Source of the DNA: Bacteroidota bacterium
GTDB taxonomy: Bacteria > Bacteroidota > Bacteroidia > CAILMK01
Length of the DNA stretch: 64,000 nt
Reading direction: 5' to 3'
Assembly (NCBI GenBank): GCA_034440515.1
Contig: JAWXCF010000049.1
Location: forward strand, 12,948 to 76,947
Shown here: positions 2,965 to 49,492 of the stretch, piece after piece
Layout of the letters: each line of letters begins with the position of its first letter
Numbering within the stretch: position 1 is the stretch's first letter
The notes under the pieces: model-generated
Seen by the model: the letters and a program-made list of their open reading frames with translations, nothing else
Told to the model about the DNA's origin: nothing
Database searches by the model: none
Program-made: the position numbers and the translations under genes

Positions 2965-3536
2965 ATTTACAGTTCTAACTGCTACAAAGTCATAAAAATA
3001 ATGAAATGATTCTTTTCATATATACATTCATATTATATATCACTTGTTTTTCTTTCGAACCTAAAGTCTAATCCTGAATATCTAAAATGTGTATTACTAG
3101 GATATAATCGTTTATTAAACCCAATTCCGTTATCTCAAAAATAATAACTGTATCCAGTACTAAACCGACGATATGGATCAATGTAACCAAACAATTTTAA
3201 CTTACTAAACTAAGTAGTATCAGTTAAATAGTAATCAAATGGTACGTATGTATATTTACTATTACTTGAATCTAAAAAACTAGCAAAGTAAAAATTATTC
3301 TTTTCAATTAGAATTTTTTTGTTGATATAGTTAGCATTATACTCCCCTAACAAATGTAGATACCCCCCCCTGTGCCTAATGCACAAGAGGGTATAAAAAT
3401 GAAATTAAGAAAATAAAATTAACAGGAGTCTTCGTAATCTTTTCTGTATGGCTAAACCATTTTTGTCTTTTGCTTCAAGTGTGTAGTTACTTAACGAAAA
3501 ATACTTTTGTTCTGTAGCCTTGGTCAGTTTTCTTTA

Positions 3537-5165
3537 TTATTTTCCTAAAAAAGGATAAATATAATCTTGTGGCATTGCAAATGTTTCCTTAATGGTTCTA
3601 GGCGAAACCCATCGCATTAAGTTGATGCTACTACCTGCTTTATCATTGGTTCCACTGCCTCTGGCACCGCCAAATGGTTGTTGCCCTACTACAGCTCCTG
3701 TTGGCTTATCGTTTATATAGAAGTTACCAGCAGCATTTTTCAATCCTTCTGTCGCTTTTACAATAGCGTATCTGTCAGTTGCTATTATAGACCCTGTTAA
3801 GGCATAAGGACTGGTTCCGTCTATGATGGTCATAACCTTTTCGAAGTCTTTCGGCTCATAGACATATACAGTCAATACTGGACCAAACAATTCGTCGCAC
3901 ATAGTTACATAGTTAGGGTCTGAGACCTCAATTATGGTTGGTGCAATAAAGTATCCGATTGTTTTATCGTAAGTGCCACCAGTTACAATCTTTACAGATG
4001 AATCATTTTTGGCATTATCTATATAACCTGTTATTTTATCAAAGGCTTTCTCATCTATTACAGCATTTATAAAATTGCCAAAATCCTCAACATCGCCCAT
4101 TTTAAAGTCTTCTATCATTGCTACTGCGCGATCTCTCACTTCAGGCCAAATGTTAGAAGGTATGTATGCTCTTGACGCTGCAGAGCATTTTTGTCCTTGA
4201 TATTCAAATGCTCCTCTGGCTATAGCTACAGCAGTACCCTGTACATCAGCAGATTCGTGGGCCAATATAAAGTCTTTACCACCAGTCTCTCCTACTATTC
4301 TAGGGTACGATTTGTACTTGTGTATGTTATTGCCTATTTGCTGCCAGATAGACTGGAATACACTGGTAGAACCTGTAAAGTGAATGCCACCAAAGTCATA
4401 ATGATTAAAGCAAACTTCAGCACAGTCTTGCCCGCTTGGATATATAAGGTTAATGACACCTGCGGGTAAACCAGCAGCTTGAAATATTTCCATAATTACC
4501 TGAGCAGAATAAACTTGCTTATCGCTTGGTTTCCATACAACAGTATTACCCATTAATGCAGCAGATGCAGGAAGATTTCCTGCTATAGAGGTAAAATTAA
4601 ATGGCGTCAATGCGAATACAAAACCCTCCAAGGCTCTGTATTCTAATCTATTCCACATACCAGGTGCTGACTCTGGTTGATTTTTATATATTTCGGTAGC
4701 GTAAAATGCGTTGAAACGTAGAAAATCTATGAATTCACAAGCAGCATCTATCTCCGCCTGAAATACGTTTTTGCTTTGTGCCAACATAGTTGCTGCGTTC
4801 ATTTTCGCTCTATATGGTCCAGCTAATAAATCTGCCGCTTTCAGAAATATGGCGCAACGGTCATACCAAGCTGTATTTTCCCACGCTGTTTTGGCTGACA
4901 TAGCAGCATCAATAGCAGCTAATATTTGAGACTTCTCAGCTTTATGGTATTGACCAAGTTTATGCTTATGGTTATGTGGAGCAAATATGTCTATTACCTT
5001 GCCCTCTCTTACCGCTTGCCCATTTATATAGGCAGGTATATCTAATTGTTGACCCTTAAGGTCTGCAATTGCAGATATTACTTGATGTTTTTCTAGACTA
5101 TCAGGACTGTAAGGTTTAACAGGCTCATTTACAGGAATAGGAACATTAAAAAATGCATTTGCCAT
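3537..5165 (-). CDS. pruA: L-glutamate gamma-semialdehyde (delta-1-pyrroline-5-carboxylate) dehydrogenase, aldehyde dehydrogenase superfamily
   Basis: 542 aa. Contains the ALDH glutamate motif (VGETGGKDF) and catalytic Cys context (GQKCSAASR). Length and N-terminus typical of bacterial P5CDH. Confidence 0.85.
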   Translation of the reverse strand: MANAFFNVPIPVNEPVKPYSPDSLEKHQVISAIADLKGQQLDIPAYINGQAVREGKVIDIFAPHNHKHKLGQYHKAEKSQILAAIDAAMSAKTAWENTAWYDRCAIFLKAADLLAGPYRAKMNAATMLAQSKNVFQAEIDAACEFIDFLRFNAFYATEIYKNQPESAPGMWNRLEYRALEGFVFALTPFNFTSIAGNLPASAALMGNTVVWKPSDKQVYSAQVIMEIFQAAGLPAGVINLIYPSGQDCAEVCFNHYDFGGIHFTGSTSVFQSIWQQIGNNIHKYKSYPRIVGETGGKDFILAHESADVQGTAVAIARGAFEYQGQKCSAASRAYIPSNIWPEVRDRAVAMIEDFKMGDVEDFGNFINAVIDEKAFDKITGYIDNAKNDSSVKIVTGGTYDKTIGYFIAPTIIEVSDPNYVTMCDELFGPVLTVYVYEPKDFEKVMTIIDGTSPYALTGSIIATDRYAIVKATEGLKNAAGNFYINDKPTGAVVGQQPFGGARGSGTNDKAGSSINLMRWVSPRTIKETFAMPQDYIYPFLGK

Positions 5166-10116: not shown

Positions 10117-11073
10117 ATGGCAGATATTGGAAATGATATAATTCGTGCAGCAGATTATTTGAATAATGCTGAATTAGTGGGCATACCAACCGAGACTGTT
10201 TATGGGCTGGCAGCAAATGCTTTTAACCAAACTGCAGTAGCTAAGATATTTGATGTAAAGCGACGTCCAAGTTTTGATCCATTAATAGTCCATATTTCTA
10301 ATTTAGACACTTGGCAAAAATGTGTGATTGAAATTTCTACTACAGCTAAAAAATTAGCTGATGCATTTTGGCCTGGTCCATTAACACTAGTTATGGCGAA
10401 AAGCGATCTAATTCCAGATTTAGTCAGTTCTGGCTTAGCTACTGTTGGCATTAGAATGCCTAATCACAAATTAACCTTAGCTTTATTAGATTCATTAAAT
10501 TTTCCATTAGCAGCACCAAGTGCAAACATATTTGGTTACATATCGCCCGTAACAGCCCAACACGTTGAGGAAGGTCTTGGTAAGTTAATACCCTATATAT
10601 TAAATGGTGGCAAGACAAGTATAGGTGTAGAAAGTACTATAGTAGATATTACTACAGAAACTCCCCAATTGTTAAGAGCTGGTGGAATAAGTTTTGAGGC
10701 ATTGCAAAAAATTATGCCCAATATTCAAATAGCAAAACCTAATTCTATTGCATCTAGTCCAGGTTCACTAGACAATCATTATGCCCCAATCAAACCATTA
10801 TTATTAGGAGATTTAGGCGAATTAATTAAAGAGCATTTAGATAAAAAAATCAGCATAATTAGTTATTCCAATTCCTACACATTAACAGACTTAGTTCATA
10901 ACTACATATTATCTCCAACTAATAGTTTAAACGTAGCAGCAAGCAATCTGTTTCAATATATGAGACAAGCCGATGCTGACGCTAGTACAATAATATTAGC
11001 TGAATTAGTACCTAATTTCGGGCTGGGAGTTGCTATTAATGACAGACTTTGGAAGGCATCACTTAAACTTTAA
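10117..11073 (+). CDS. tsaC: L-threonylcarbamoyladenylate synthase (Sua5/YrdC/TsaC family, long form with Sua5 C-terminal domain)
   Basis: YrdC fold motifs (GIPTETVYGLAANA, KRRP). About 320 aa, consistent with the Sua5-type. I chose the ATG at 10117; the ORF track starts at a GTG at 10087. Confidence 0.85.
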   Translation: MADIGNDIIRAADYLNNAELVGIPTETVYGLAANAFNQTAVAKIFDVKRRPSFDPLIVHISNLDTWQKCVIEISTTAKKLADAFWPGPLTLVMAKSDLIPDLVSSGLATVGIRMPNHKLTLALLDSLNFPLAAPSANIFGYISPVTAQHVEEGLGKLIPYILNGGKTSIGVESTIVDITTETPQLLRAGGISFEALQKIMPNIQIAKPNSIASSPGSLDNHYAPIKPLLLGDLGELIKEHLDKKISIISYSNSYTLTDLVHNYILSPTNSLNVAASNLFQYMRQADADASTIILAELVPNFGLGVAINDRLWKASLKL

Positions 11074-12900
11074 TGGTTTATACTTTTTAGGTAAAGTGTA
11101 AACTTTATCCTTATTTAATTCCTTCAAATAGGCCATAAGTGGTTCAAAATATTCTAGCATCGCCTTAGCTTGTAATTCACTGCCTGTATTGTCTTTTAAT
11201 ACCTGGCGCCAATCTTTTGCTGAGCCCCAGTACATTATATTTTTTAAGAACAATCCAATTTCTTTACTACCATGGTAATTAGTATTGTGAGGATCTTGCT
11301 TTAAAATATCTTTTGCAATGTGCTGATGCACTTGAAATAATAGAATAAATGACAATGCATAATCATAATATTGGGCAGGATCATCATTTATATGGGTCTT
11401 AGTTGCCGCATCACAATACAATTCAGATCTAGTCTCAGGAGGGATAATTCCTTGGTAATTTTTTACCAATTCCCACCAACGCTTATTAAATTGATCTTTA
11501 GGTAGTTTGCCTGCATACATTTCATACTCAAACTGTGTCATTACGCCAGCACTGAACGGGATGAACACAACAAATTCTAGTGCTTCCTTTAGTAAAATTT
11601 GCATATCGTCTGTTTCAGCATTATCTGGTAGTAAACCATTAGCAGCCAACATACCTTTCTGCACAGCAGCCTTACCTACTATTGTGCCAAATGCCTCGTG
11701 GTAGGCTCTATTTGCCCCCTCACGTAGTAAATATGGGACATCTGGATTGCTATATGTCATATAATAATATATATGCCCTAATTCGTGATTTACCGTTGAG
11801 TACCATTCTACGTTAGGCTCTACACTCATCAGGCTTCTTACATCTTTGTCTAAATCTAAGTGCCAAGCTGATGCGTGATTATTTTTTGCAAATGTTGCAG
11901 TTGGAGGCAAGGGATATAAGCTGCTTTTCGTGTAAAATGAACTAGGTAGATTATCGTAACCTAAGCTTACGTAGAAATTCTCTCCTGATTTTACCAGCCA
12001 TTCTGGAGTCTTTGTCCCAATAATGCTGTCTAAATTTAAACCCTTTACTTGAATCATACTACTCCAATCTTGACCCCATCTATTTGGCAACCAGTCTGCT
12101 GGTAAATAAGTTGGGACAGATTTATCAGAATATTTATCTGCTAGTGCATATCGTGTGTAGGTATGTAATTCTCTATAAAGTGGCCAAAGCTGTGAAATGA
12201 ATTTTTGATTCATCTTAAGCATTTCCTTAGAACTCATTCCATATTCACTTACTTGATAATTAAAATAATCAGAATACCCCAATTTGGTCACAACTTCATT
12301 TCTAAGGTCTCTTAATTGAGCAAGAGAATCTTTCAACACCTTTCCAATTTCTTTGCTACTTACCCAGGCATTATGTCTTTCTTCTTTATTTATACTATTA
12401 ATTAAAATGCTGTCTAAATAATTGGTAGATACCTTTTTATTTTTATACATATAGTTATACCCATACAGCATCTCTGTTTGAGTGGTTTCTTTTCTTATAC
12501 GTTTAGCAACCAAATCTTTAGCTGTTGCAGGATTTCCTGCAGCCATATATAATATTTTATTTAGTTGCTTAACTTGAATGTTAGTCAATTTTTTAAATTG
12601 GCTTAAGTACATTCTAGCAATTCTTATATTCTCCTCACTTCCAGTAAATGCAGACATAGCTTCATCTGCCTTTTGCGAACGCTGGGCATTGGTATTATCA
12701 CCAGTCACAATATGCGTATTTAGCAACCAGGCAGATTCGCTTGACTCAATATATAGCTTTCGATACTGCTCGTTATATTTCTTTAGGTAAGCCTCTACTT
12801 CTAATTGTAGTGCAGTGTAATTATTAGCCTTTTGTCCAAATATTGAACTGGACATTGACATTCCAATTAGAATGAGTAATAGATATAACTTATTTTTCAT
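11059..12900 (-). CDS. Secreted M2-family peptidyl-dipeptidase (angiotensin-converting-enzyme-like zinc metallopeptidase)
   Basis: Signal peptide. HELGHIYYY matches the ACE HHEMGHIQY zinc motif. 613 aa, typical of single-domain bacterial ACE homologues. Confidence 0.65.
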   Translation of the reverse strand: MKNKLYLLLILIGMSMSSSIFGQKANNYTALQLEVEAYLKKYNEQYRKLYIESSESAWLLNTHIVTGDNTNAQRSQKADEAMSAFTGSEENIRIARMYLSQFKKLTNIQVKQLNKILYMAAGNPATAKDLVAKRIRKETTQTEMLYGYNYMYKNKKVSTNYLDSILINSINKEERHNAWVSSKEIGKVLKDSLAQLRDLRNEVVTKLGYSDYFNYQVSEYGMSSKEMLKMNQKFISQLWPLYRELHTYTRYALADKYSDKSVPTYLPADWLPNRWGQDWSSMIQVKGLNLDSIIGTKTPEWLVKSGENFYVSLGYDNLPSSFYTKSSLYPLPPTATFAKNNHASAWHLDLDKDVRSLMSVEPNVEWYSTVNHELGHIYYYMTYSNPDVPYLLREGANRAYHEAFGTIVGKAAVQKGMLAANGLLPDNAETDDMQILLKEALEFVVFIPFSAGVMTQFEYEMYAGKLPKDQFNKRWWELVKNYQGIIPPETRSELYCDAATKTHINDDPAQYYDYALSFILLFQVHQHIAKDILKQDPHNTNYHGSKEIGLFLKNIMYWGSAKDWRQVLKDNTGSELQAKAMLEYFEPLMAYLKELNKDKVYTLPKKYKPLKFK

Positions 12901-21435: not shown

Positions 21436-22896
21436 TTATTTTGATGGAGAAATAAACTGCTCTGCGTCTTCGTAAATTAATGGTGCAATTATTTTACCTG
21501 TAGTATCTATAAAACCCCACTTACCTGCTTTATTTACAGCAGCCAAGCCTTGACTGAAGTCACGAACTTCATCATACGCTGGTTTTATAACCATTGCTCC
21601 TGATGAATTTATAAATCCCCATTTAGCCCCTTGTTGTACTCCCGCTAAACCTCCTTGAAAACCGTGAGCACCATTATATATTAGTTTAATGTAAACTACA
21701 CCTTTATCATTTACAAACCCAGATTTGCCGTCTTTGCTTAAAGTACCAACTTTTTCTTGATAGTCAAACTGAATAAAATCATATTCGGGTTTAAGGACTG
21801 GCTTATTTGTTTGGTCGGTCATACCCCATTTACCATTAACATTCATTAGCGCCAATCCATTATAGAAGCTACTAGCTTCAAAGAAAATAGCAGGAACTAC
21901 CATTTTACCTGTAGGGTCAATAAATCCCCATTTCAAACCTTTTTTTACAGCTGCCAATCCTTCAGCAAATGGTTTAGCATCATCATATACTGCAGGTATA
22001 ACCAATTTGCCAGTTCTATTCATAAAGCCGACCTTCTTACCCTTAGTTACTATCATTAAATCATTTACAAAGCCACTATTAAAAGCGTCGTAACTATTTG
22101 TCCCCGTTATTAATTTTCCAGTTTTATCTATTAGACCATATCCACCTGAGCCTTTTTCTACCTGAGCAAAGCCTTCTGAATTAAATGGAGCTGCTGACTT
22201 AAACTGTGCACTTATTACCATTTTACCATTAGTACCTAAGTAGCCATATTTACCCATACTCTTTACAATGGCTAATTTATCTGCAAAAGGATTTGCATCA
22301 TCATAGTTTGCTGGTATAACCAATTTACCTGTTTGGTCTAAATATCCCCATTTTCCACCTTGTACACCATTGTCACCTAATGGCTTACCACCTTTATTTA
22401 CACAAGCTAACCCATCAGTAAATGGTCTGGCAAACTCATATGTGGCTGGTATAATTAATTTACCTGCTTTATTTACAAAGCCCCACTTACCCAGCTTTTT
22501 TGCTGGTTTCAGTTCTCCTGATGAAGCTTCAATTTTTTCATATTCAGCTTCACCCACAGGTTTACTATTAGCATCAAGCACACCATATTTACCAGAAATT
22601 TTATAAGTACCTGTTCTATCACTACTTAAGTTTATCTCTTCATATTTTAGTGGTAGAATTTCTACGCCTGTCTTTGGTGAAATAATCCCATAATTACCAT
22701 CATTACTTACAATTGCTTGTTCATCATTAATAATAATTATTGATTCAAATTTTGGAGCAACTATTGGTTTGCCATTTGTACCCAGAAGACCAATTTTGGG
22801 ACCTTTGTGAATTTTAGCTACATAGACTTGAGCATTAGTATTGACTACTAATGCTACAGTTGCCAATAAGGTAAATAAATAAGAGAAAAATTTCAT
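21436..22896 (-). CDS. Secreted WG-repeat (KWG-type) protein
   Basis: Signal peptide followed by about 10 tandem ~35-aa repeats of the form KWGFIDxxGKxVIPxxYDxAxxFxxGLAxV. Confidence 0.7.
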   Translation of the reverse strand: MKFFSYLFTLLATVALVVNTNAQVYVAKIHKGPKIGLLGTNGKPIVAPKFESIIIINDEQAIVSNDGNYGIISPKTGVEILPLKYEEINLSSDRTGTYKISGKYGVLDANSKPVGEAEYEKIEASSGELKPAKKLGKWGFVNKAGKLIIPATYEFARPFTDGLACVNKGGKPLGDNGVQGGKWGYLDQTGKLVIPANYDDANPFADKLAIVKSMGKYGYLGTNGKMVISAQFKSAAPFNSEGFAQVEKGSGGYGLIDKTGKLITGTNSYDAFNSGFVNDLMIVTKGKKVGFMNRTGKLVIPAVYDDAKPFAEGLAAVKKGLKWGFIDPTGKMVVPAIFFEASSFYNGLALMNVNGKWGMTDQTNKPVLKPEYDFIQFDYQEKVGTLSKDGKSGFVNDKGVVYIKLIYNGAHGFQGGLAGVQQGAKWGFINSSGAMVIKPAYDEVRDFSQGLAAVNKAGKWGFIDTTGKIIAPLIYEDAEQFISPSK

Positions 22897-27300: not shown

Positions 27301-30300
27301 TTACATATTTCTTCTATATTTTCCACCAACCTCATACAATGCTGCAGAAATCTGACCTATTGAACAGACCTTACAAGCTTGCATTAATTCAGAAAATATA
27401 TTTCCATTATTAATAGCTACTTGTTGCAATGATTTCAAAGCTTGAGCAGAAACATCTTTATTTCTAAGTTGGAATTGCAATACAGCATCAATTTGTGCTT
27501 GTTTTTCCTGTTCTGTACTTCTTATTACTTCGCCAGGTGTTACAGTAGGTGAACCTGATTTACTTAGGAATGTATTAACACCCATAATTGGTAGCTCGCC
27601 TGTATGTTTTAGATTTTCATAGTAAAGTGATTCCTCTTGTATTAGGTTCCTTTGATACATTGTTTCCATTGCTCCCAACACACCCCCACGTTCACTTATT
27701 CTTTCGAACTCTGCATACACTGCATTTTCAACCAATTCTGTTAATTCATCAATAATAAATGAACCCTGTAGTGTATTTTCATTTTTCACTAGACCTAACT
27801 CTTTATTAATGATTAACTGAATTGCCATAGCTCTTCGCACACTTTCCTCAGTAGGTGTTGTTATAGCTTCATCGTAGGCATTAGTATGTAGGCTATTACA
27901 GTTATCATATATTGCATATAAGGCTTGTAAAGTAGTTCTTATATCATTAAAGTCAATTTCTTGCGCGTGTAGGGATCTTCCTGAAGTCTGAATGTGGTAT
28001 TTAAGCATTTGACTTCTCTCATTAGCACCGTACTTTATTTTCATTGCTTTGGCCCATATTCTCCTTGCAACTCGTCCAATTACTGCATATTCTGCATCTA
28101 TACCATTGCTAAAGAAAAAGCTAAGATTGGGAGCAAAATCATCGATGTTCATACCTCTATTCAGGTAATATTCTACGAATGTGAAGCCATTCGATAAGGT
28201 TAGTGCCAACTGAGTAATTGGATTAGCACCAGCCTCTGCAATATGATAACCTGAAATACTAACGGAGTAAAAATTTCTAACCTTTTGTTGAATGAAATAC
28301 TCTTGTATATCTCCCATCATTCTTAGGGCAAATTCAATTGAAAATATGCAAGTATTTTGGGCTTGATCTTCTTTCAATATGTCTGCCTGAACTGTACCCC
28401 TTACAGAGGCTAAGGTATCCACCATTATTTGTTCATACACTACTTTTGGTAACACTTCGTCACCACTCACTCCAAGTAGTTTAAGGCCAAGACTGTTGTT
28501 AGATGATGGTATTTCACCGATGTACTTAGGAATTTCTACACCCTTACTGTTGTATAGGGTGTTAATTTTAAGATTTACATCATCCCACAGATTATGGTCA
28601 GTTATATACTTTTCACAGTTTTGGTCAATAGCTGCATTTAAAAAGAACCCAAGTAGCATTGGCGCTGGACCGTTAATGGTCATAGATACTGATGTAAGAG
28701 GATTGGTTAGATCAAAGCCGCTATACAGTTTTTTAGCGTCATCTACAGTTGCTATGCTTACACCACTATTTCCTATTTTACCGTATATATCTGGTCTGTA
28801 GTCAGGGTTTTCACCATATAGGGTTACGCTATCAAAGGCAGTAGACAATCTTTTAAAGGGAGAATCTGCACTTACATAGTGAAACCTTTTATTAGTACGT
28901 TCTGGTCCACCCTCGCCTGCAAACATTCTAATTGGGTCTTCCTCTGTACGTTTAAATGGATACAAACCTGCTGCAAATGGAAACCTGCCTGGAATGTTCT
29001 CATTCAAGATCCAATACAGAACATCACCCCAATCTTGAAAGTTTGGTAAACATACTTTAGGTACTTGTATATGACTTAATGTTTCTGTAAATAAAGGAAC
29101 CTCAATATTTTTATTTCTTACTTGGTAGCTTAATACAGACTGTTTATAAGAGTTCTTAAGCTCTGGCCATTCTGTCAATAGCCTTCTGCTATCAGCGTGT
29201 AGATGGTTTTCTGTATCTTTATATAATTGATCTAAATGTGAAGTATCTAAACCCTTTTGCCTAAATAAATCTATAGTTCCGTGTAATTGATATAATTGGC
29301 TCGCTAATTTCTTTTGTTCTAAAGTGAATTTCCTGTATGCTTTAGCATTTTCAACTATTTCAGCTAAGTACCTGTTTCTTGCTGGTGGTATAATGTACAT
29401 TTTTTCTGAAATTGTCTCAGCCAATACAGAAGTGCTTCTTAGGGGAGAGTTCGTAACTGAACTAATGACATCCATTAGTGCTACATACAGTTTATTTACC
29501 CCCGGGTCATTAAACTGCGAAGCCATTGTCCCGTATATAGGCAATTCTTCATCAGCAACTTGAAATAACATTCTGCTCCTTTTAAATTGCTTTTTTACAT
29601 CTCTTATCGCATCAAGTGCACCTTTTTTATCAAACTTATTGATAGCTATAATATTCGCATAGTCTATCATATCAATTTTCTCTAACTGAGTAGCTGCTCC
29701 AAATTCTGGAGTCATTACATACATACTTACATCAGATAAATCTACGACACTGCTATCAGCCTGACCAATTCCAGCACTTTCTAAAATGATTAAGTCAAAA
29801 CCAGACTTACTACATATCTTAATAGCCTCAGCTACAAACGGTGACAAGGCTAAGTTAGATTCTCTAGTAGCCATACTGCGCATATACACTCTATCATTAT
29901 GAATGCTATTCATTCTGATTCTATCACCTAGTAATGCACCCCCAGTTTTTCTCTTACTTGGGTCAACCGAAATAATGGCTAATTTCTTGTCTGGGTGATC
30001 GTTAATAAATCTCCTCACCAATTCATCTACCAAACTAGACTTACCTGCACCCCCTGTACCTGTTATACCAAGTACTGGTACTTTAAGTGTTTTACCTAAT
30101 TCGTTAAGCTTATTGTGTAAACTTTTAATATCATCGTGGTTTTCTGCATACGTAATCGCTTTTGCTATTTCCGCAAAGTCTGATTGCGGAATACCTGCCC
30201 AGTTTACGTCGTCAATGCTAGATATGGTCGGATAATCGCAAGCTTCGACCAACTCGTTAATCATTCCTTGCAGACCTAATTTTCTTCCATCGTCTGGACT

Positions 30301-30663
30301 GTAAATTTTAGTTATGCCATAAGCGTGAAGCTCATTAATCTCCGAATTAAGTATAACTCCACCTCCACCTGCAAATATCTTAATATGACCAGCACCACGT
30401 TCTTTTAATAAGTCAAACATATACTTCAGATACTCATTGTGCCCCCCTTGATATGAGGTTAAAGCAATGCCTTGAACATCTTCTTGAATAGCGCAGTCCA
30501 CTATCTCACCCACACTCCTATTATGTCCCAAATGAATAACCTCACAACCAGTTGCCTGGATTATTCTCCTCATTATGTTTATAGCTGCATCGTGCCCGTC
30601 AAATAAGCTTGCCGCTGTAACTATTCGTATTTTATTCTTTGGTTTATAAACTTCAGTTTCCAT
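27301..30663 (-). CDS. icmF: Fused isobutyryl-CoA mutase-type enzyme (IcmF): B12-binding domain + MeaB-like G-protein + acyl-CoA mutase substrate domain
   Basis: N-terminal B12-binding-domain-like region (LFDGHDAA...VIHLG), a central P-loop GTPase ([12 protein letters not shown]), and a large C-terminal methylmalonyl-CoA-mutase-like barrel. About 1120 aa, as for IcmF. The real start is probably the ATG at 30661-30663; the ORF track starts at a TTG at 30687. Confidence 0.8.
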
Positions 30664-30685
30664 TTTACTAATTAATTGCCCATAC

Positions 30686-30693
30686 AAAGGTAA
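30686..30693 (-). promoter_or_regulatory. Candidate -7 element (TACCTTTG on minus strand) about 22 nt upstream of the icmF ATG at 30663
   Basis: Exact TAnnTTTG match. Confidence 0.3.
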
Positions 30694-41602: not shown

Positions 41603-42475
41603 CTATTTTGTAACTCTATAACCATATTGTGCTATGATTTCTGCCCTAGTCAAGTCAAGGCTGGTTACCGTCATTGGAATGTTAGAGTATGGTCTTCCTG
41701 CCACATTCTTAGGCTGTTTTACAATATTTAAGGATACGTCTGTCCCTTTTAAAGTTTTACCAAACACAGTATATTCATTGTTTAGATTAGCTGTACCAGA
41801 AGTGTTTACTACTATGTAAAACTGACTACCATTGCTGGCTTTAGAAGGATTTTGAGCATCACCTAACCTTGCTGCACCAACAGCACCAAAATCGTGCTTT
41901 AAACTTGGCATTATTTCGGCAGGAATGGTATAGCTGGGACCACCTGTTCCGTCATTAGTTGAGTCTAAGTCTTTTGAATTAGGATCTCCACCTTGTATCA
42001 CAAAATTATTTACAAGTCTATGGAATGTTGTTCCATTTAAATATTGCTGAGAAGTCAACTTTAAATAATTATTTCTATGAAACGGTGTTTCGTTGTATAA
42101 AAAAACAATCATTTCTCCGAAGCTTGTATTTATTTTAAGTAATCTTTCCTTAATTATCATATCTGCTGTGCCTGATACACCGGTACCATTTTTCACAGTT
42201 CTAAGAGTAACTACATAAGCAAAAGCACTATCGTAAGTATGCATTATGCTATCACCAGTACTAAACTCGGTTTTACCATCACCAAAATACCACTGTCTTT
42301 TTTCAGTGCCCGATTCTGGATTTAAGTGTTTAAAAGTTACTGTTTTACCAGTGTAATCAACAGTCGAACTGAATTTAGGTGAAGGCTGGGATAAAGTATC
42401 TTTTGCTTTGTCACAAGAAATAAAGCTAAAAGTAAATAGACAAATAAATGCTATCGATTGAAGTATATGTTTCAA
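41603..42475 (-). CDS. Lipoprotein peptidyl-prolyl isomerase: PKD-like domain fused to cyclophilin domain
   Basis: Lipobox (FSFISCD). WYFGDGKTEF...HTY is a PKD pattern. [15 protein letters not shown] and GTGGPSY are cyclophilin motifs. Confidence 0.75.
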   Translation of the reverse strand: MKHILQSIAFICLFTFSFISCDKAKDTLSQPSPKFSSTVDYTGKTVTFKHLNPESGTEKRQWYFGDGKTEFSTGDSIMHTYDSAFAYVVTLRTVKNGTGVSGTADMIIKERLLKINTSFGEMIVFLYNETPFHRNNYLKLTSQQYLNGTTFHRLVNNFVIQGGDPNSKDLDSTNDGTGGPSYTIPAEIMPSLKHDFGAVGAARLGDAQNPSKASNGSQFYIVVNTSGTANLNNEYTVFGKTLKGTDVSLNIVKQPKNVAGRPYSNIPMTVTSLDLTRAEIIAQYGYRVTK

Positions 42476-42556: not shown

Positions 42557-43489
42557 ATGTCGAAAACGCTAAAGGCTTGGATTCTGCTCCTAATTCTTGC
42601 ATTAATATGGGGCAGCTCTTTTTATTTCATAAATAATGCCCTTCAATATTTTTCACCTTTTCAGGTAGGGTGTTTGCGGTTATCAATAGCTGGATTAATC
42701 TTATTTCCGTTTATTATTCCACAATTAAGGACTTTAAATAAACGACAACTTTTTGGCAGCATTTGCTTTGGTTTATGCAATGCGGGACTACCAGCTTTCA
42801 TATTTGCTTGGGCTCAACAATATGTACAAAGTAGCACAGCTGGTGTGTTAAATGCTTTAACACCAATGTTCAATTTCTTAGTTGGCATCTTGTTTTTTCA
42901 AGTAATATTCAAATGGAATAAATTGGCAGGTGTTGTAATAGGATTCATTGGTGCTATTGTTATCATAAATGGAGCAACAAAACTTGGTATTCATTCACGT
43001 ACATTGAAAGGTGAGGCCCATTTAATTCATTACTTAGCAATCGTATTTGCGACCTTCCTATATGGAATAAGTGGAAACATAATGGCGAAGTATTTATATG
43101 ATGTGAAAGGGTATGTTGTATCTGGATTAAGTTATTTTAGTTTTGGCATACCTTTATTAATTATTTGCCTAACAACGACAGATTTAGGTGATAAAATTAT
43201 GAATATTCAATCCGTTTACGATAAACCTATTTATAGCATTTTGGGTTTATCAGTATTGGGATCTGCCTTAGCCATAATTTTGTTTAGTAGTTTGGTCAAG
43301 GCAAGCAATTCACTATTTGCAACCTCTGTAACTTACCTAATTCCATTTGTAGCTTTATGCTGGGGAATTGGTAGCAAGGAAACCATACAATTTAGCATAT
43401 ACGTTGGGTTGATTATGATATTGGCTGGTATAGCCATAGGTACAATTAAGTTTAAGAAGAATAAATTAATTAAAATAAAAAAAGTATGA
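42557..43489 (+). CDS. EamA/DMT-family 10-TM transporter
   Basis: Duplicated 5-TM EamA domain pattern. Its stop overlaps the start of the next gene by 4 nt (ATGA). Confidence 0.8.
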
Positions 43490-43929
43490 CAACAGGAAAA
43501 ATTGTAACCAATAAGGGTACTATGGATTTAGAATTCTATGATACAGATGCACCAGGAACTGTAGCAAATTTTACCAAACTAGCAAATAATGGATTTTACA
43601 ATGGGCTAAAGTTTCATAGAGTAATTCCAGGTTTTGTGATTCAAGGTGGTGACCCCCGTGGAGATGGTACTGGTGGTCCTGGCTATTCAATTCCTTGTGA
43701 GACTAGTGGTGGAAATCAGTTTCACGACAAAGGGGTATTAAGTATGGCACACGCCGGTAAAAATACTGGAGGTTCTCAGTTTTTTATAGTATACTCACGT
43801 AACTCAACCAGTCACTTAGACGGTCAACACACTTGCTTTGGAAAAGTAACCAACGGTTTGGATATTATTGATCAGATAAAAGAAGGCGATACTATAGAGA
43901 GTATTACCATCAACAATATTGAAAATTAA
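43486..43929 (+). CDS. ppiB: Cytoplasmic cyclophilin-type peptidyl-prolyl cis-trans isomerase
   Basis: [22 protein letters not shown] and SMAHAG...GSQFFI motifs. 147 aa. Confidence 0.9.
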
Positions 43930-44204: not shown

Positions 44205-45581
44205 CTACTTTTCAGTACATATTTGTTGCAACTGTAGTTTGATGGGCATAACAAACACGTTGTTAGTTTCATCACTTTCTTTAAATTTATTGGTCGGATC
44301 AACTTCCACTACCAAATAATATTGCCCATTACAAGTATTCTCAGGGATAGTAACATATTGCCCCTCAAACGACTGACCATAATGGTCTATTCCCCCAACA
44401 CTAATACCCTGTAGATTGCTTTCACACTTTATATAGTGCCCAAAACCATAATTAGGTAGGTTCTGCACACTTTTATACCCATTATCACCATCTTGGCACA
44501 TCTGATTTTCATCCGTACAATTACCTGAGTCAAACAGACAATAACTTACTTTATGCCCAATGCTAAGTACTGGCCATTTACGAGCGTCAGGCTCGCCCTC
44601 AATTTTATTTCGAAGTGTTATTTCTATCCAATCATCGGCGTGAAAATGATTATGTCCCCTGCTACTGTCAAAGTAATTAGTACCAGCTCGTTTTCTGTAT
44701 GTTGATATTTTACCTTTTTTCTTATAGTAAATAATCTGGTCTAAATACTGCCTAGCGTTTTGGCCATTAGGGCATCGTATAGGACCATCTACTGGTTTGC
44801 CATCACAAATCCAATTGCCTGTTCCTTGAGTTTCAAGTGGCCCGAACCCAATATTTGGCGTAGCCACAGCTAATCTTACCTGCCTTGGATAATATTTATC
44901 TGTAGTCGAGTACTCTTGAAATTGAATTTCTGTCATTCTAGCACCAATAATTAAATCTGGTAGTAATTCGCATTTCTTACTCTTACGCTTTGGGCAAGCA
45001 CAGGCTGTTGGATTATTTGTATTACAAGGAGTATATGCTTCTTTTGGTGGTTGATTGCCAAAGTCTAAATGAACATAGTCTATGGTACCTTCTACGTCTA
45101 TTAATAAATCTTGAACTACCAAATACCAAGTACCATTTGGATTCTGATTATTGTTGAAATCATTAATTTTTCCATCTGGAATATAAGTTCCTACATAAGG
45201 TGCTTTATTCTCATATAAATGACCTGAAAAACCATTGTCTGCAAAGCAAGTTTCTAAATAATTTTTACCATTATCACCTCCATTTCTATTAGTTACCCAA
45301 ATTGAAGTTGAATCTGGTGAAATCAATTCAATTTTTAAATCGGAAATTCTGTCGTGGGTAATATTTAAGCATACTCTTTCAAGTCCAAACCTTGCGTCAA
45401 TTTTATCGGGTAGCCCTGAGACTTGGACAGCTATAATATATGGTCTGTAAGTAGCGTCATTGTCAGGAATTTGCCCCCCCCTAGTGGTTATGCGTTGTAC
45501 TTCGTGTTTATTTTGTGCAGTTATTTGACCTACATAAAATAATGCTATAATAAGAAAAAAAAATTTGCAGTTCATAGTCAT
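44205..45581 (-). CDS. Secreted lysyl-oxidase-like copper amine oxidase domain protein with N-terminal proprotein-convertase P-domain
   Basis: Signal peptide and a P-domain-like block (RISDLKIELISPDSTSIWVTNRNGGDNGKNY). The C-terminal block aligns with the human LOX catalytic domain: HNHFH vs HQHYH (copper site), GHKVSYCLFDSGNC vs GHKASFCLEDTSCD (LTQ lysine), and GQYYLVVEVDPTNKFKESDETNNV vs [24 protein letters not shown]. Confidence 0.65.
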   Translation of the reverse strand: MTMNCKFFFLIIALFYVGQITAQNKHEVQRITTRGGQIPDNDATYRPYIIAVQVSGLPDKIDARFGLERVCLNITHDRISDLKIELISPDSTSIWVTNRNGGDNGKNYLETCFADNGFSGHLYENKAPYVGTYIPDGKINDFNNNQNPNGTWYLVVQDLLIDVEGTIDYVHLDFGNQPPKEAYTPCNTNNPTACACPKRKSKKCELLPDLIIGARMTEIQFQEYSTTDKYYPRQVRLAVATPNIGFGPLETQGTGNWICDGKPVDGPIRCPNGQNARQYLDQIIYYKKKGKISTYRKRAGTNYFDSSRGHNHFHADDWIEITLRNKIEGEPDARKWPVLSIGHKVSYCLFDSGNCTDENQMCQDGDNGYKSVQNLPNYGFGHYIKCESNLQGISVGGIDHYGQSFEGQYVTIPENTCNGQYYLVVEVDPTNKFKESDETNNVFVMPIKLQLQQICTEK

Positions 45582-45592
45582 ATACTTGCAGG

Positions 45593-45600
45593 CAAATGTA
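45593..45600 (-). promoter_or_regulatory. Candidate -7 element (TACATTTG on minus strand) just upstream of the LOX-like gene
   Basis: Exact TAnnTTTG match 12 nt upstream of the annotated ATG. This implies a very short leader or use of the second Met. Confidence 0.25.
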
Positions 45601-48487: not shown

Positions 48488-49492
48488 ATGATAGAGCCAA
48501 CAAAATCTAAAAAAAATGACGATGAAATACTCGAATTTGAAAGTAATGACAGAAATAAAGTACCAAATAAACAAGATGACCTTGGTCTAGGAACTAAAAT
48601 AGTTGAAAAAGATGCCCGTTGGGTTAATCCTGATGGTACATTTAATGTAAAGCGTGAAGGAATACCTTGGTACCATAAACGAGGGGTTTATCATTACACC
48701 CAAGAACTTTCCTGGCCTAAATTTATAGGAATGATTCTGCTTGCTTATTTAGGCATTAATCTCGTTTTTACAATTTTGTATTTGTTAATAGGTACACATC
48801 AAATAAATGGAATGGGACAAGGTGAATTGGGGAAATTTTGGGAGGCATTCTTCTTTAGTGTTCAAACCTTTACCACAGTAGGTTATGGTGGGCTAAGTCC
48901 AAATGGTTTTGCTGCACATATAGTTGCTTCAATAGAAAGTATGTCCGGTTGGATGGGTTTTGCCATTGCTGGTGCCTTAATGTTTGGTAGATTTAGCAGA
49001 CCTAGAGTGAAAATACTTTACAGTCACAATATTATAATTGCACCTTATGCAGATGGTAAAGGTCTAATGTTTAGAATGGTAAATAAATTAGATAACCAGT
49101 TAATTGAGGTAAATGTGTCTGTAATAATGAGTATAAACGGAACAGAATCTCAAGCAGGTAAAAGACAATTTTATCAATTAAAACTTGAGCGTAGTAAAGT
49201 AGATTTTTTTCCGACTAGTTGGACGGTAGTTCATCCTATAAATGATGAAAGCCCAATGAAAAACCTAAGCATCGAGGATTTAGATAATAGAAAAACAGAA
49301 TACTTACTTCTTATCAAGGCTTGGGATGAAAGCTTTAATCAAACTGTTTATACTAAGCACTCTTATGTAAGCGAAGAATTGGTAAACGGAGCGAAATTTA
49401 AATCGATGACAGATATGGACGGTCGAAGTGAAGTTGTTCTTCATTTAGATAAAATAAATGATATAGAATTATTATTAAACAGCGAGTTTTAA
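48488..49492 (+). CDS. KirBac-type inward-rectifier potassium channel
   Basis: Slide helix, two TM helices flanking a pore helix with the TVGYG selectivity filter (AFFFSVQTFTTVGYGG), RFSRPRVKI after M2, and a C-terminal Ig-like cytoplasmic domain. 334 aa. Confidence 0.8.
   Translation: MIEPTKSKKNDDEILEFESNDRNKVPNKQDDLGLGTKIVEKDARWVNPDGTFNVKREGIPWYHKRGVYHYTQELSWPKFIGMILLAYLGINLVFTILYLLIGTHQINGMGQGELGKFWEAFFFSVQTFTTVGYGGLSPNGFAAHIVASIESMSGWMGFAIAGALMFGRFSRPRVKILYSHNIIIAPYADGKGLMFRMVNKLDNQLIEVNVSVIMSINGTESQAGKRQFYQLKLERSKVDFFPTSWTVVHPINDESPMKNLSIEDLDNRKTEYLLLIKAWDESFNQTVYTKHSYVSEELVNGAKFKSMTDMDGRSEVVLHLDKINDIELLLNSEF

Follow-up and report, generated by a model that had tools for sequence, protein, structure and literature searches.

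What a bacterial protein that joins a proprotein-convertase P-domain to a lysyl oxidase (LOX) catalytic domain might act upon is the question raised by a gene on contig JAWXCF010000049.1 of the Bacteroidota bacterium assembly GCA_034440515.1. The gene lies on the minus strand of a 64,000-nucleotide stretch of this contig (positions 12,948 to 76,947), referred to hereafter as the window, and had been described in an earlier interpretation of the letters alone, the sequence-only reading, as encoding a secreted LOX-like enzyme. The reading that we favour, with a probability of roughly 0.6, is that of a Sec-exported, two-domain copper/quinone amine oxidase of the lysyl oxidase family whose natural substrates would be lysine residues of envelope or surface proteins.

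The coding sequence is complete, and its extent, strand, ATG start and length were as the sequence-only reading had given them (Table 1); the NCBI annotation begins two codons later, at M3, resulting in a polypeptide of 456 amino acids. A signal peptide (M1-A22) has a predicted cleavage site after A22 (ITA/QN), the sequence reading MTMNCKFFFLIIALFYVGQITA followed by QNK, and export by the Sec pathway is predicted on this basis. No lipobox cysteine was seen after the hydrophobic region on inspection of the N-terminus, and Pfam identified no C-terminal sorting domain for type IX secretion (T9SS; Por_Secre_tail or type B C-terminal domain), the LOX domain reaching the last residues. Secretion as first proposed was thus borne out as far as Sec export but not beyond it, since the T9SS domain is absent, and with neither a T9SS domain nor a lipobox the default location of the protein is the periplasm.

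Both domains were recognised by Pfam, in agreement with the earlier prediction. The P_proprotein profile (PF01483) matched residues 70-169 with 35.9 bits (cut-off 21), and the assignment was confirmed by a jelly-roll fold; the Lysyl_oxidase profile (PF01186) matched residues 340-454 with 36.7 bits (cut-off 20.4). The latter match is partial, covering positions 107-199 of 204 in the profile, and the copper site lies outside it. The catalytic domain, put at 150 residues before, in fact comprises about 250 (residues ~204-458). No NCBIfam model matched the 458-residue protein. A further Pfam match, to CARDB (27.7 bits, residues 406-443, positions 44259-44363 on the minus strand), overlapped the end of the LOX domain; CARDB was rejected as a rival identity because the overlap is limited to those two LOX strands that carry the calcium motif. 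The last LOX strands, which bear the DP-x-N...E-x-D-x-x-NN calcium motif, weakly match the solved CARDB domains 2L0D, 2KL6 and 3IDU, and the C-terminal part of the LOX fold is suggested to share a calcium-binding module with CARDB. In furin/kexin (Homo B) and the Aeromonas sobria serine protease the P-domain accompanies an S8 subtilisin domain, whereas in the window protein it sits N-terminal to an oxidase; no S8 peptidase domain was detected there (Pfam, E<=1), and only 27 residues precede the P-domain.

An alignment of 45 homologues at 40-58% identity (alignment A1) was used to identify conserved positions. Invariant in it were G309, H310, H312, H314, K344, C348, C355, C362, C386, Q391 and G392, as well as L207-P208-D209-L210, D399, Y401, G402, E406, G407, Q408 and N440. 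In the linker between the two domains C186 and C194 were nearly invariant, and a basic KRKSKK stretch was restricted to the subclade of the window protein. A search of the PDB with a profile of this alignment found human LOXL2 (5ZE3) at E 4e-6, with D399-x-Y401 placed on the D-M-Y of LOXL2, and a profile restricted to the catalytic domain weakly aligned LLPDL with the 'APDL' of LOXL2. The PDL motif provides the first calcium-site ligands in LOXL2. A single-sequence phmmer search against the PDB returned no relevant match, so that the family profile was needed to reach this structure.

Comparison of the catalytic-domain alignment with the LOXL2 catalytic domain by hhalign gave a probability of 96.6% and an E-value of 5.3e-10 over 106 columns, fragments of the LOXL2 sequence used having been checked against the HMMER alignments to 5ZE3. 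The matched blocks were GHNHFH with CHRHYH, GHKVSYCLFD with GHKASFCLED, GGIDHY with GCWDMY and ESDETNN with ESDYSNN, confirming the motif-by-motif likeness to the animal catalytic domain that had been noted from the letters. Over 176 aligned residues the identity to the animal lysyl oxidases LOXL2 (PDB 5ZE3) and LOX is 24%. In LOXL2, H626, H628 and H630 are essential for biogenesis of the lysine tyrosylquinone (LTQ) co-factor, and K653 and Y689 are its precursors (PMC9694262); the residues of the window protein that align with these five are listed in Table 1. The central interpretation of the sequence-only reading, namely a signal peptide, a P-domain and a LOX-like domain with the copper and LTQ residues, thus held in the tests proposed for it, Pfam and structural comparison with LOXL2, and in several others. 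Judged from its sequence, the LOX domain thus has all the features that define the family: the profile match, the LOX fold, the His-x-His-x-His motif and the candidate LTQ lysine and tyrosine. Whether this lysine and tyrosine lie close together in a predicted structure, proposed earlier as a means of refuting LOX identity, is not decisive, because the two are 16.6 A apart in the crystal structure of the LOXL2 precursor (5ZE3; PMC9694262).

Table 1. Features of the LOX gene and its product, in window coordinates.
Feature	Position	Strand	Basis or remark
TACATTTG, 11 nt 5' of the ATG	45593..45600	-	read from sequence
Complete coding sequence, 458 aa plus stop	44205..45581	-	ATG start
Sec (SPase I) signal peptide, residues 1-22, MTMNCKFFFLIIALFYVGQITA then QN	45516..45581	-	n-, h- and c-regions from sequence; helix 3-23 in model
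T9 run, codons F7-F8-F9 of the signal peptide	45555..45563	-	
P-domain jelly roll, residues ~28-176	45054..45500	-	Pfam core residues 70-169 = nt 45075-45374
G8 run, AGG GGG GGG = R34-G35-G36	45474..45481	-	74 nt downstream of T9; absent from the sequence-only reading
Cysteine-containing linker, residues 177-203	44973..45053	-	alignment of 45 homologues
LOX catalytic domain, residues 204-458, LLPDL to C-terminus	44208..44972	-	
P208-D209-L210	44952..44960	-	aligned with LOXL2 'PDL'; family-invariant
Copper site, H310-N-H312-F-H314	44640..44654	-	all three His invariant; on LOXL2 H626/H628/H630
K344, candidate LTQ lysine	44550..44552	-	on LOXL2 K653; invariant
Y401, candidate LTQ tyrosine	44379..44381	-	on LOXL2 Y689; invariant in D399-x-Y401-G402
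E435-S-D-E-T-N440-N441, calcium-site motif	44259..44279	-	on LOXL2 ESDYSNN; also gives the CARDB match

The differences from LOXL2 raise the possibility of a non-catalytic relic, a binding or structural protein with LOX fold and P-domain in which LTQ formation has been lost. Mutation of the auxiliary residues H623 and H652 halves LTQ formation in LOXL2 (PMC9694262), and neither position is conserved across alignment A1, the window protein having S307 at the former and H343 at the latter. A relic would be consistent with the lack of conservation at these two positions, with the partial Pfam match to the LOX profile and with the observation that cells of Haloterrigena turkmenica have no detectable LOX activity (PMC6452851). 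Set against these points are the invariance of H310, H312, H314, K344, Y401, D399, four cysteines and the calcium motif at 40-58% identity; because these residues fit an active site under purifying selection, loss of catalysis appears very improbable.

The only characterised prokaryotic LOX found in the searchable literature, HTU-LOX from H. turkmenica, was active after refolding with copper, sensitive to beta-aminopropionitrile (BAPN), promiscuous on small amines and partly autoinhibited by an N-terminal stretch (PMC6452851). By its published description it is, like the window protein, a LOX-domain protein from a prokaryote that bears a signal peptide and has the three histidines, lysine and tyrosine; it differs in its archaeal origin, its short N-terminal pro-region, the lack of a P-domain and a native function described as cryptic. 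From the invariant residues and the activity of HTU-LOX, which has the same residues, we infer that copper/LTQ catalysis would also take place in the window protein. By analogy with the biochemistry of LOX and LOXL2, export and disulfide formation would be followed by the conversion of Y401 to a quinone by Cu2+ and O2, and addition of K344 to this quinone would yield LTQ. The co-factor would oxidise primary amines, typically the epsilon-amino groups of protein lysines, to aldehydes with formation of NH3 and H2O2, and the protein aldehydes would condense spontaneously to covalent cross-links.

LOX is best known for the cross-linking of collagen and elastin in animals. The bacterial setting differs in offering no collagen or elastin as substrate, and the N-terminal partner of the catalytic domain also differs, being a P-domain in the window protein and SRCR repeats or the LOX propeptide in animals, as does the cysteine pattern.

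The identification is correct but not new, as it is already in the public annotation: an identical protein is recorded at NCBI as 'MAG: lysyl oxidase family protein [Bacteroidota bacterium]'. A word-indexed search revealed 437 homologues, the best 120 of which all combined PF01483 with PF01186 in proteins of ~430-575 amino acids. These were variously named 'lysyl oxidase family protein', 'proprotein convertase P-domain-containing protein' and 'subtilisin-like proprotein convertase family protein', the last a misnomer given the absence of an S8 domain. A scan of one genome per species identified at least 539 relatives; the named genera included Hymenobacter, Dyadobacter, Spirosoma, Runella, Emticicia, Arcicella, Fibrella, Lewinella, Taibaiella, Pedobacter and Kaistella, and metagenome-assembled genomes of Saprospiraceae and Chitinophagaceae were also numerous. 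An exhaustive search of 1.84 billion representatives of clusters at 50% identity yielded 201 clusters at E<=1e-30 and 1292 at E<=1e-10. The named genera are known as free-living soil and freshwater bacteria, and the earlier suggestion that the enzyme might act on host proteins goes further than the evidence.

Bacterial LOX homologues have been catalogued since 2015 and their function has been called enigmatic. LOX is known in Bacteria including Bacteroidetes, the majority of prokaryotic LOX proteins being described as consisting of the LOX domain alone (PMC4448552), and has been called as frequent in actinomycetes and occasional elsewhere (PMC6452851). In the searchable full-text literature no publication was found that deals with a LOX of the Bacteroidota or that connects LOX with type IX secretion. 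Of the earlier statement that bacterial homologues are sporadic and essentially uncharacterised, the second half stood, the searched literature containing no characterised member from the Bacteroidota, and the first did not hold for the Bacteroidota, given at least 539 species-level genomes. The known LOX enzyme family has a large and uncharacterised branch in the Bacteroidota, to which the window protein belongs. One LOX gene with its downstream neighbour (L009, JBPBPU010000085.1; protein P0012), on a contig labelled 'MAG: Janthinobacterium lividum', clustered tightly with Hymenobacter and is probably a binning error rather than a proteobacterial LOX.

Gene neighbourhoods of the relatives provided the evidence bearing on the substrate. 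Open reading frames (ORFs) were called in 84 LOX loci and a hidden Markov model (HMM) was built from the region common to the recurrent neighbour; this domain model replaced single-linkage clustering of neighbours, which had grouped together proteins that are unrelated but have sorting and PKD domains in common. A partner domain of ~345 amino acids was found at the N-terminus of an adjacent gene on the same strand in 46 of the 84 loci, directly downstream of LOX in 37 and directly upstream in 7 (for example L002-L004, L011-L029 and others, such as L015:11362-13074 and L003:7554-9524, and also L092-L099). It belongs to no Pfam family, and a word-indexed homologue search with the partner returned five proteins, all annotated as 'hypothetical' and devoid of Pfam domains. 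The modules that follow the partner domain vary (SdrD_B, He_PIG or CLIPPER), and 10 of 21 non-redundant partners end in a Por_Secre_tail sorting domain. About half of the partners have no Por_Secre_tail and finish in a short, cysteine-rich basic tail, C-x2-C-x3-5-C-[LIN]P-x3-5-[KR] (for example L015:12745-13074, L002:12815-13144, L023 and L039), which may serve as another signal for sorting or anchoring.

G, N and T are abundant in the partner domain. Eight columns were invariant among 20 sequences at 25-44% identity, namely four asparagines, three glycines and one lysine, the last within VGDKG. A structural model had a mediocre predicted local distance difference test score (pLDDT) of 70 overall and 76-92 over residues 50-330, with regular short strands, and comparison with the PDB gave nothing significant (best E 0.07, to the Ig-like C-terminal part); the regular short-strand pattern and an asparagine ladder lead us to describe the domain tentatively as beta-solenoid-like. 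A reverse search of metagenomes with the partner domain, for which a narrowed and less diverse alignment was used, recovered nine loci. In eight of these the partner gene had a LOX gene immediately upstream and in the same orientation, although the contig end cuts two of the eight, and the ninth was short of upstream DNA.

Other branches of the family had related arrangements. In Hymenobacter, which is part of the clade closest to the window protein, the gene downstream of LOX encodes a protein with five PKD_6 domains and Por_Secre_tail, whose N-terminus shows a remote relationship with the partner domain (hhalign probability 96%, E 2.6e-9). A third context was found in 13 loci of Chitinophagaceae, Pedobacter and Kaistella (L043, L046, L051, L057, L060, L062, L065, L066, L072, L073, L079, L081 and L083), in which two cysteine-rich proteins of ~750 amino acids precede LOX; both are secreted, lack Pfam domains and have a C-terminal CC...FC...C-x-x-C motif in common. 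In six of these loci a protein of ~585 amino acids resembling an outer-membrane beta-barrel follows, with a 233-aa ORF in between in L043. More distant relatives (35-42% identity), among them the database entries P0134, P0141, P0146, P0151 and P0172, share the pairing of P-domain and LOX, in either order, and differ from the window protein, which ends with LOX, in that PKD, Ig_7, PKD_6 or GEVED and a Por_Secre_tail are added. From their sorting domains these fusions are predicted to be T9SS cargo themselves. Most members of the family have a link either with type IX secretion or with a dedicated surface protein that is unannotated. The two-gene cassette of the sister clades, in which the partner is a T9SS-type surface protein with one invariant lysine, and the distant relatives that are themselves T9SS cargo led us to favour envelope or surface proteins, rather than small amines, as the substrates of the family. 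The window organism itself has type IX secretion, as indicated by the T9SS sorting domain on the ORF at 13-1932. This plus-strand ORF encodes a 639-aa protein in which the sorting domain is the only recognisable one and which is unrelated to the LOX partner families.

The pairing of P-domain and LOX in both orders, together with a high predicted template-modelling score (pTM), suggests that the P-domain is a structural or substrate-positioning unit; it is also possible that it is autoinhibitory, by analogy with the pro-region of HTU-LOX. A more specific proposal is that the P-domain LOX proteins of Bacteroidota are enzymes of a covalent surface matrix, which would oxidise specific lysines, such as the invariant one in VGDKG, to form allysine cross-links, with the window copy a version acting in trans. 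We regard it as speculative and rather unlikely.

In the window the LOX gene is solitary among unrelated housekeeping genes. On its 3' side lie a convergent cyclophilin gene (43486-43929, plus strand) and then genes encoding an EamA protein, a PKD-cyclophilin and an ABC-F protein; on its 5' side, divergently oriented, are a 174-aa ORF and an M49 peptidase gene, and beyond them the genes of a Kir-like channel and of an FAD protein. In P0002, the closest homologue (57% identity), the order M49, LOX, cyclophilin, EamA and ABC-F is retained, and in P0003, P0006, P0010 and P0014 (48-54% identity) LOX is again solitary, in unrelated housekeeping contexts. In a neighbour-joining tree context followed phylogeny, the window protein and P0002 forming an orphan branch beside the Hymenobacter group. 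Two cyclophilin-type prolyl isomerases are encoded within 2 kb of LOX (41603-42475, minus strand, and 43486-43929, plus strand), one of them exported and fused to a PKD domain, and the short one also adjoins LOX in the 57%-identical homologue (L001). Recent horizontal transfer was considered but gained no support from base composition, the GC content of the LOX gene (0.35-0.39) being that of its surroundings; its glycine codons are enriched in GGG (11 of 39, against 7.8%).

Several of these observations weigh against protein lysines as the substrate or against activity as such. The window copy and P0002, P0003, P0006, P0010 and P0014 have no adjacent partner, and no partner-like ORF was found anywhere in the 64-kb window by the partner HMM on a six-frame translation or by blastp. 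The window protein has neither a T9SS domain nor a lipobox and would by default be periplasmic. In the Hymenobacter-type partner the invariant lysine of the partner domain is unaligned. HTU-LOX has relaxed specificity and oxidises many small amines (PMC6452851), the LOXL2 auxiliary histidines are not conserved across the family, and the searchable literature yielded no biochemical evidence for any Bacteroidota member. Because the window copy is solitary, without a partner ORF, the inference of a protein substrate is borrowed from sister clades, and because it also lacks a T9SS domain the assignment of protein lysines to this copy is an extrapolation; it would act in trans on proteins encoded elsewhere.

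The same features bear on a different function, that of a broad-specificity amine oxidase, periplasmic or released, acting on small amines or peptides and supplying NH3 for nitrogen scavenging by an organism that degrades peptides, or H2O2 and reactive aldehydes for antagonism. The lack of a partner gene and the periplasmic location predicted from a Sec signal without a T9SS domain are consistent with such an enzyme, as is the oxidation of taurine, glycine, aminoglycosides and polymyxin by HTU-LOX (PMC6452851). The surroundings are also rich in peptidases, as the sequence-only reading had recognised (M2, M61, S9, M3, M23, M49 and rhomboid in the window), with M49 just across the short divergent ORF, and the homologue at 57% identity retains the M49/LOX neighbourhood. 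The peptidase neighbourhood is not conserved, however, as other members of the orphan subclade are found in unrelated contexts without peptidases, and the conserved links of the wider family are to large secreted proteins and T9SS domains. Nor is there an adjacent amine transporter, aldehyde dehydrogenase or catalase, the aldehyde dehydrogenase gene at 3537-5165 being 39 kb away. We regard oxidation of small amines as a serious though less likely alternative, and continue to favour an exported oxidase of envelope or surface proteins.

Expression of this oxidase might in principle be phase-variable by slippage at one of two homopolymer tracts, T9 or G8, near the 5' end of the gene. The sequence-only reading had correctly located the T9 run in the signal-peptide codons and had considered it a possible phase-variation point. 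It is the only A/T run of at least nine bases in the window, the G8 run is one of two G/C runs of eight in 64 kb (~0.09 expected from base composition), both tracts lie in the first 110 nt of the gene, and GGG is rare as a glycine codon in 24 other genes (7.8%). Against slippage, three more metagenome contigs carry the very same gene and differ from the window by 6-10 SNPs over 17-20 kb, and the gene, its flanks and both tracts are identical and in frame in all four independent consensus assemblies. Runs of T8-T10 in phenylalanine codons are also present in the signal-peptide region of seven other homologues. As for G8, GGG is common within the LOX gene itself (11 of 39 glycine codons), so that a neighbouring pair of such codons is not particularly improbable; the family conserves Gly-Gly at this position, and no homologue has a G tract at the same site. 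Phase variation is on balance improbable. The other 8-base G/C run of the window, at 3363-3370, likewise reads AGG GGG GGG (R-G-G) in its ORF.

The element TACATTTG 5' of the LOX gene fits the Bacteroidota -7 promoter consensus, TAnnTTTG, a fit expected by chance in about one in ten such spacers. The fixed-spacing pattern TTG-N19-TAnnTTTG (Bacteroidota -33/-7) was not found 5' of the gene. A sigma-70 promoter scan gave 12 matches, not above shuffled sequences (9.5 +/- 2.8), and no terminator was found for the LOX gene. Searches of the window for Rfam families and tRNA genes returned nothing.

Among the remaining genes of the window, positions 11059-12900 (minus strand) encode a full-length homologue of peptidase M2, the angiotensin-converting-enzyme family (322 bits), a family best known from animals. 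A fused B12-binding/MeaB/methylmalonyl-CoA-mutase protein of 1128 amino acids, IcmF-like, is encoded at 27301-30687 (minus strand), a protein with seven WG_beta_rep repeats at 21436-22896 (minus strand) and a homologue of Kir-type inward-rectifier potassium channels at 48488-49492 (plus strand). The 1.6 kb between 1933 and 3536 contain only short minus-strand ORFs (40-76 amino acids), one of them PKD-like, and may represent a decayed or frameshifted surface-protein gene.

The Bacteroidota thus contain a large LOX radiation, hardly mentioned in the literature, in which LOX is repeatedly paired with a P-domain. The cassette of LOX and partner and the T9SS-linked LOX fusions provide a testable substrate hypothesis for bacterial LOX. 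Soluble bacterial enzymes of ~45 kDa might also ease the study of LTQ biogenesis, compared with the poorly soluble human LOX. If the surface-matrix proposal were true, the system would be a prokaryotic counterpart of the cross-linking of the animal extracellular matrix.

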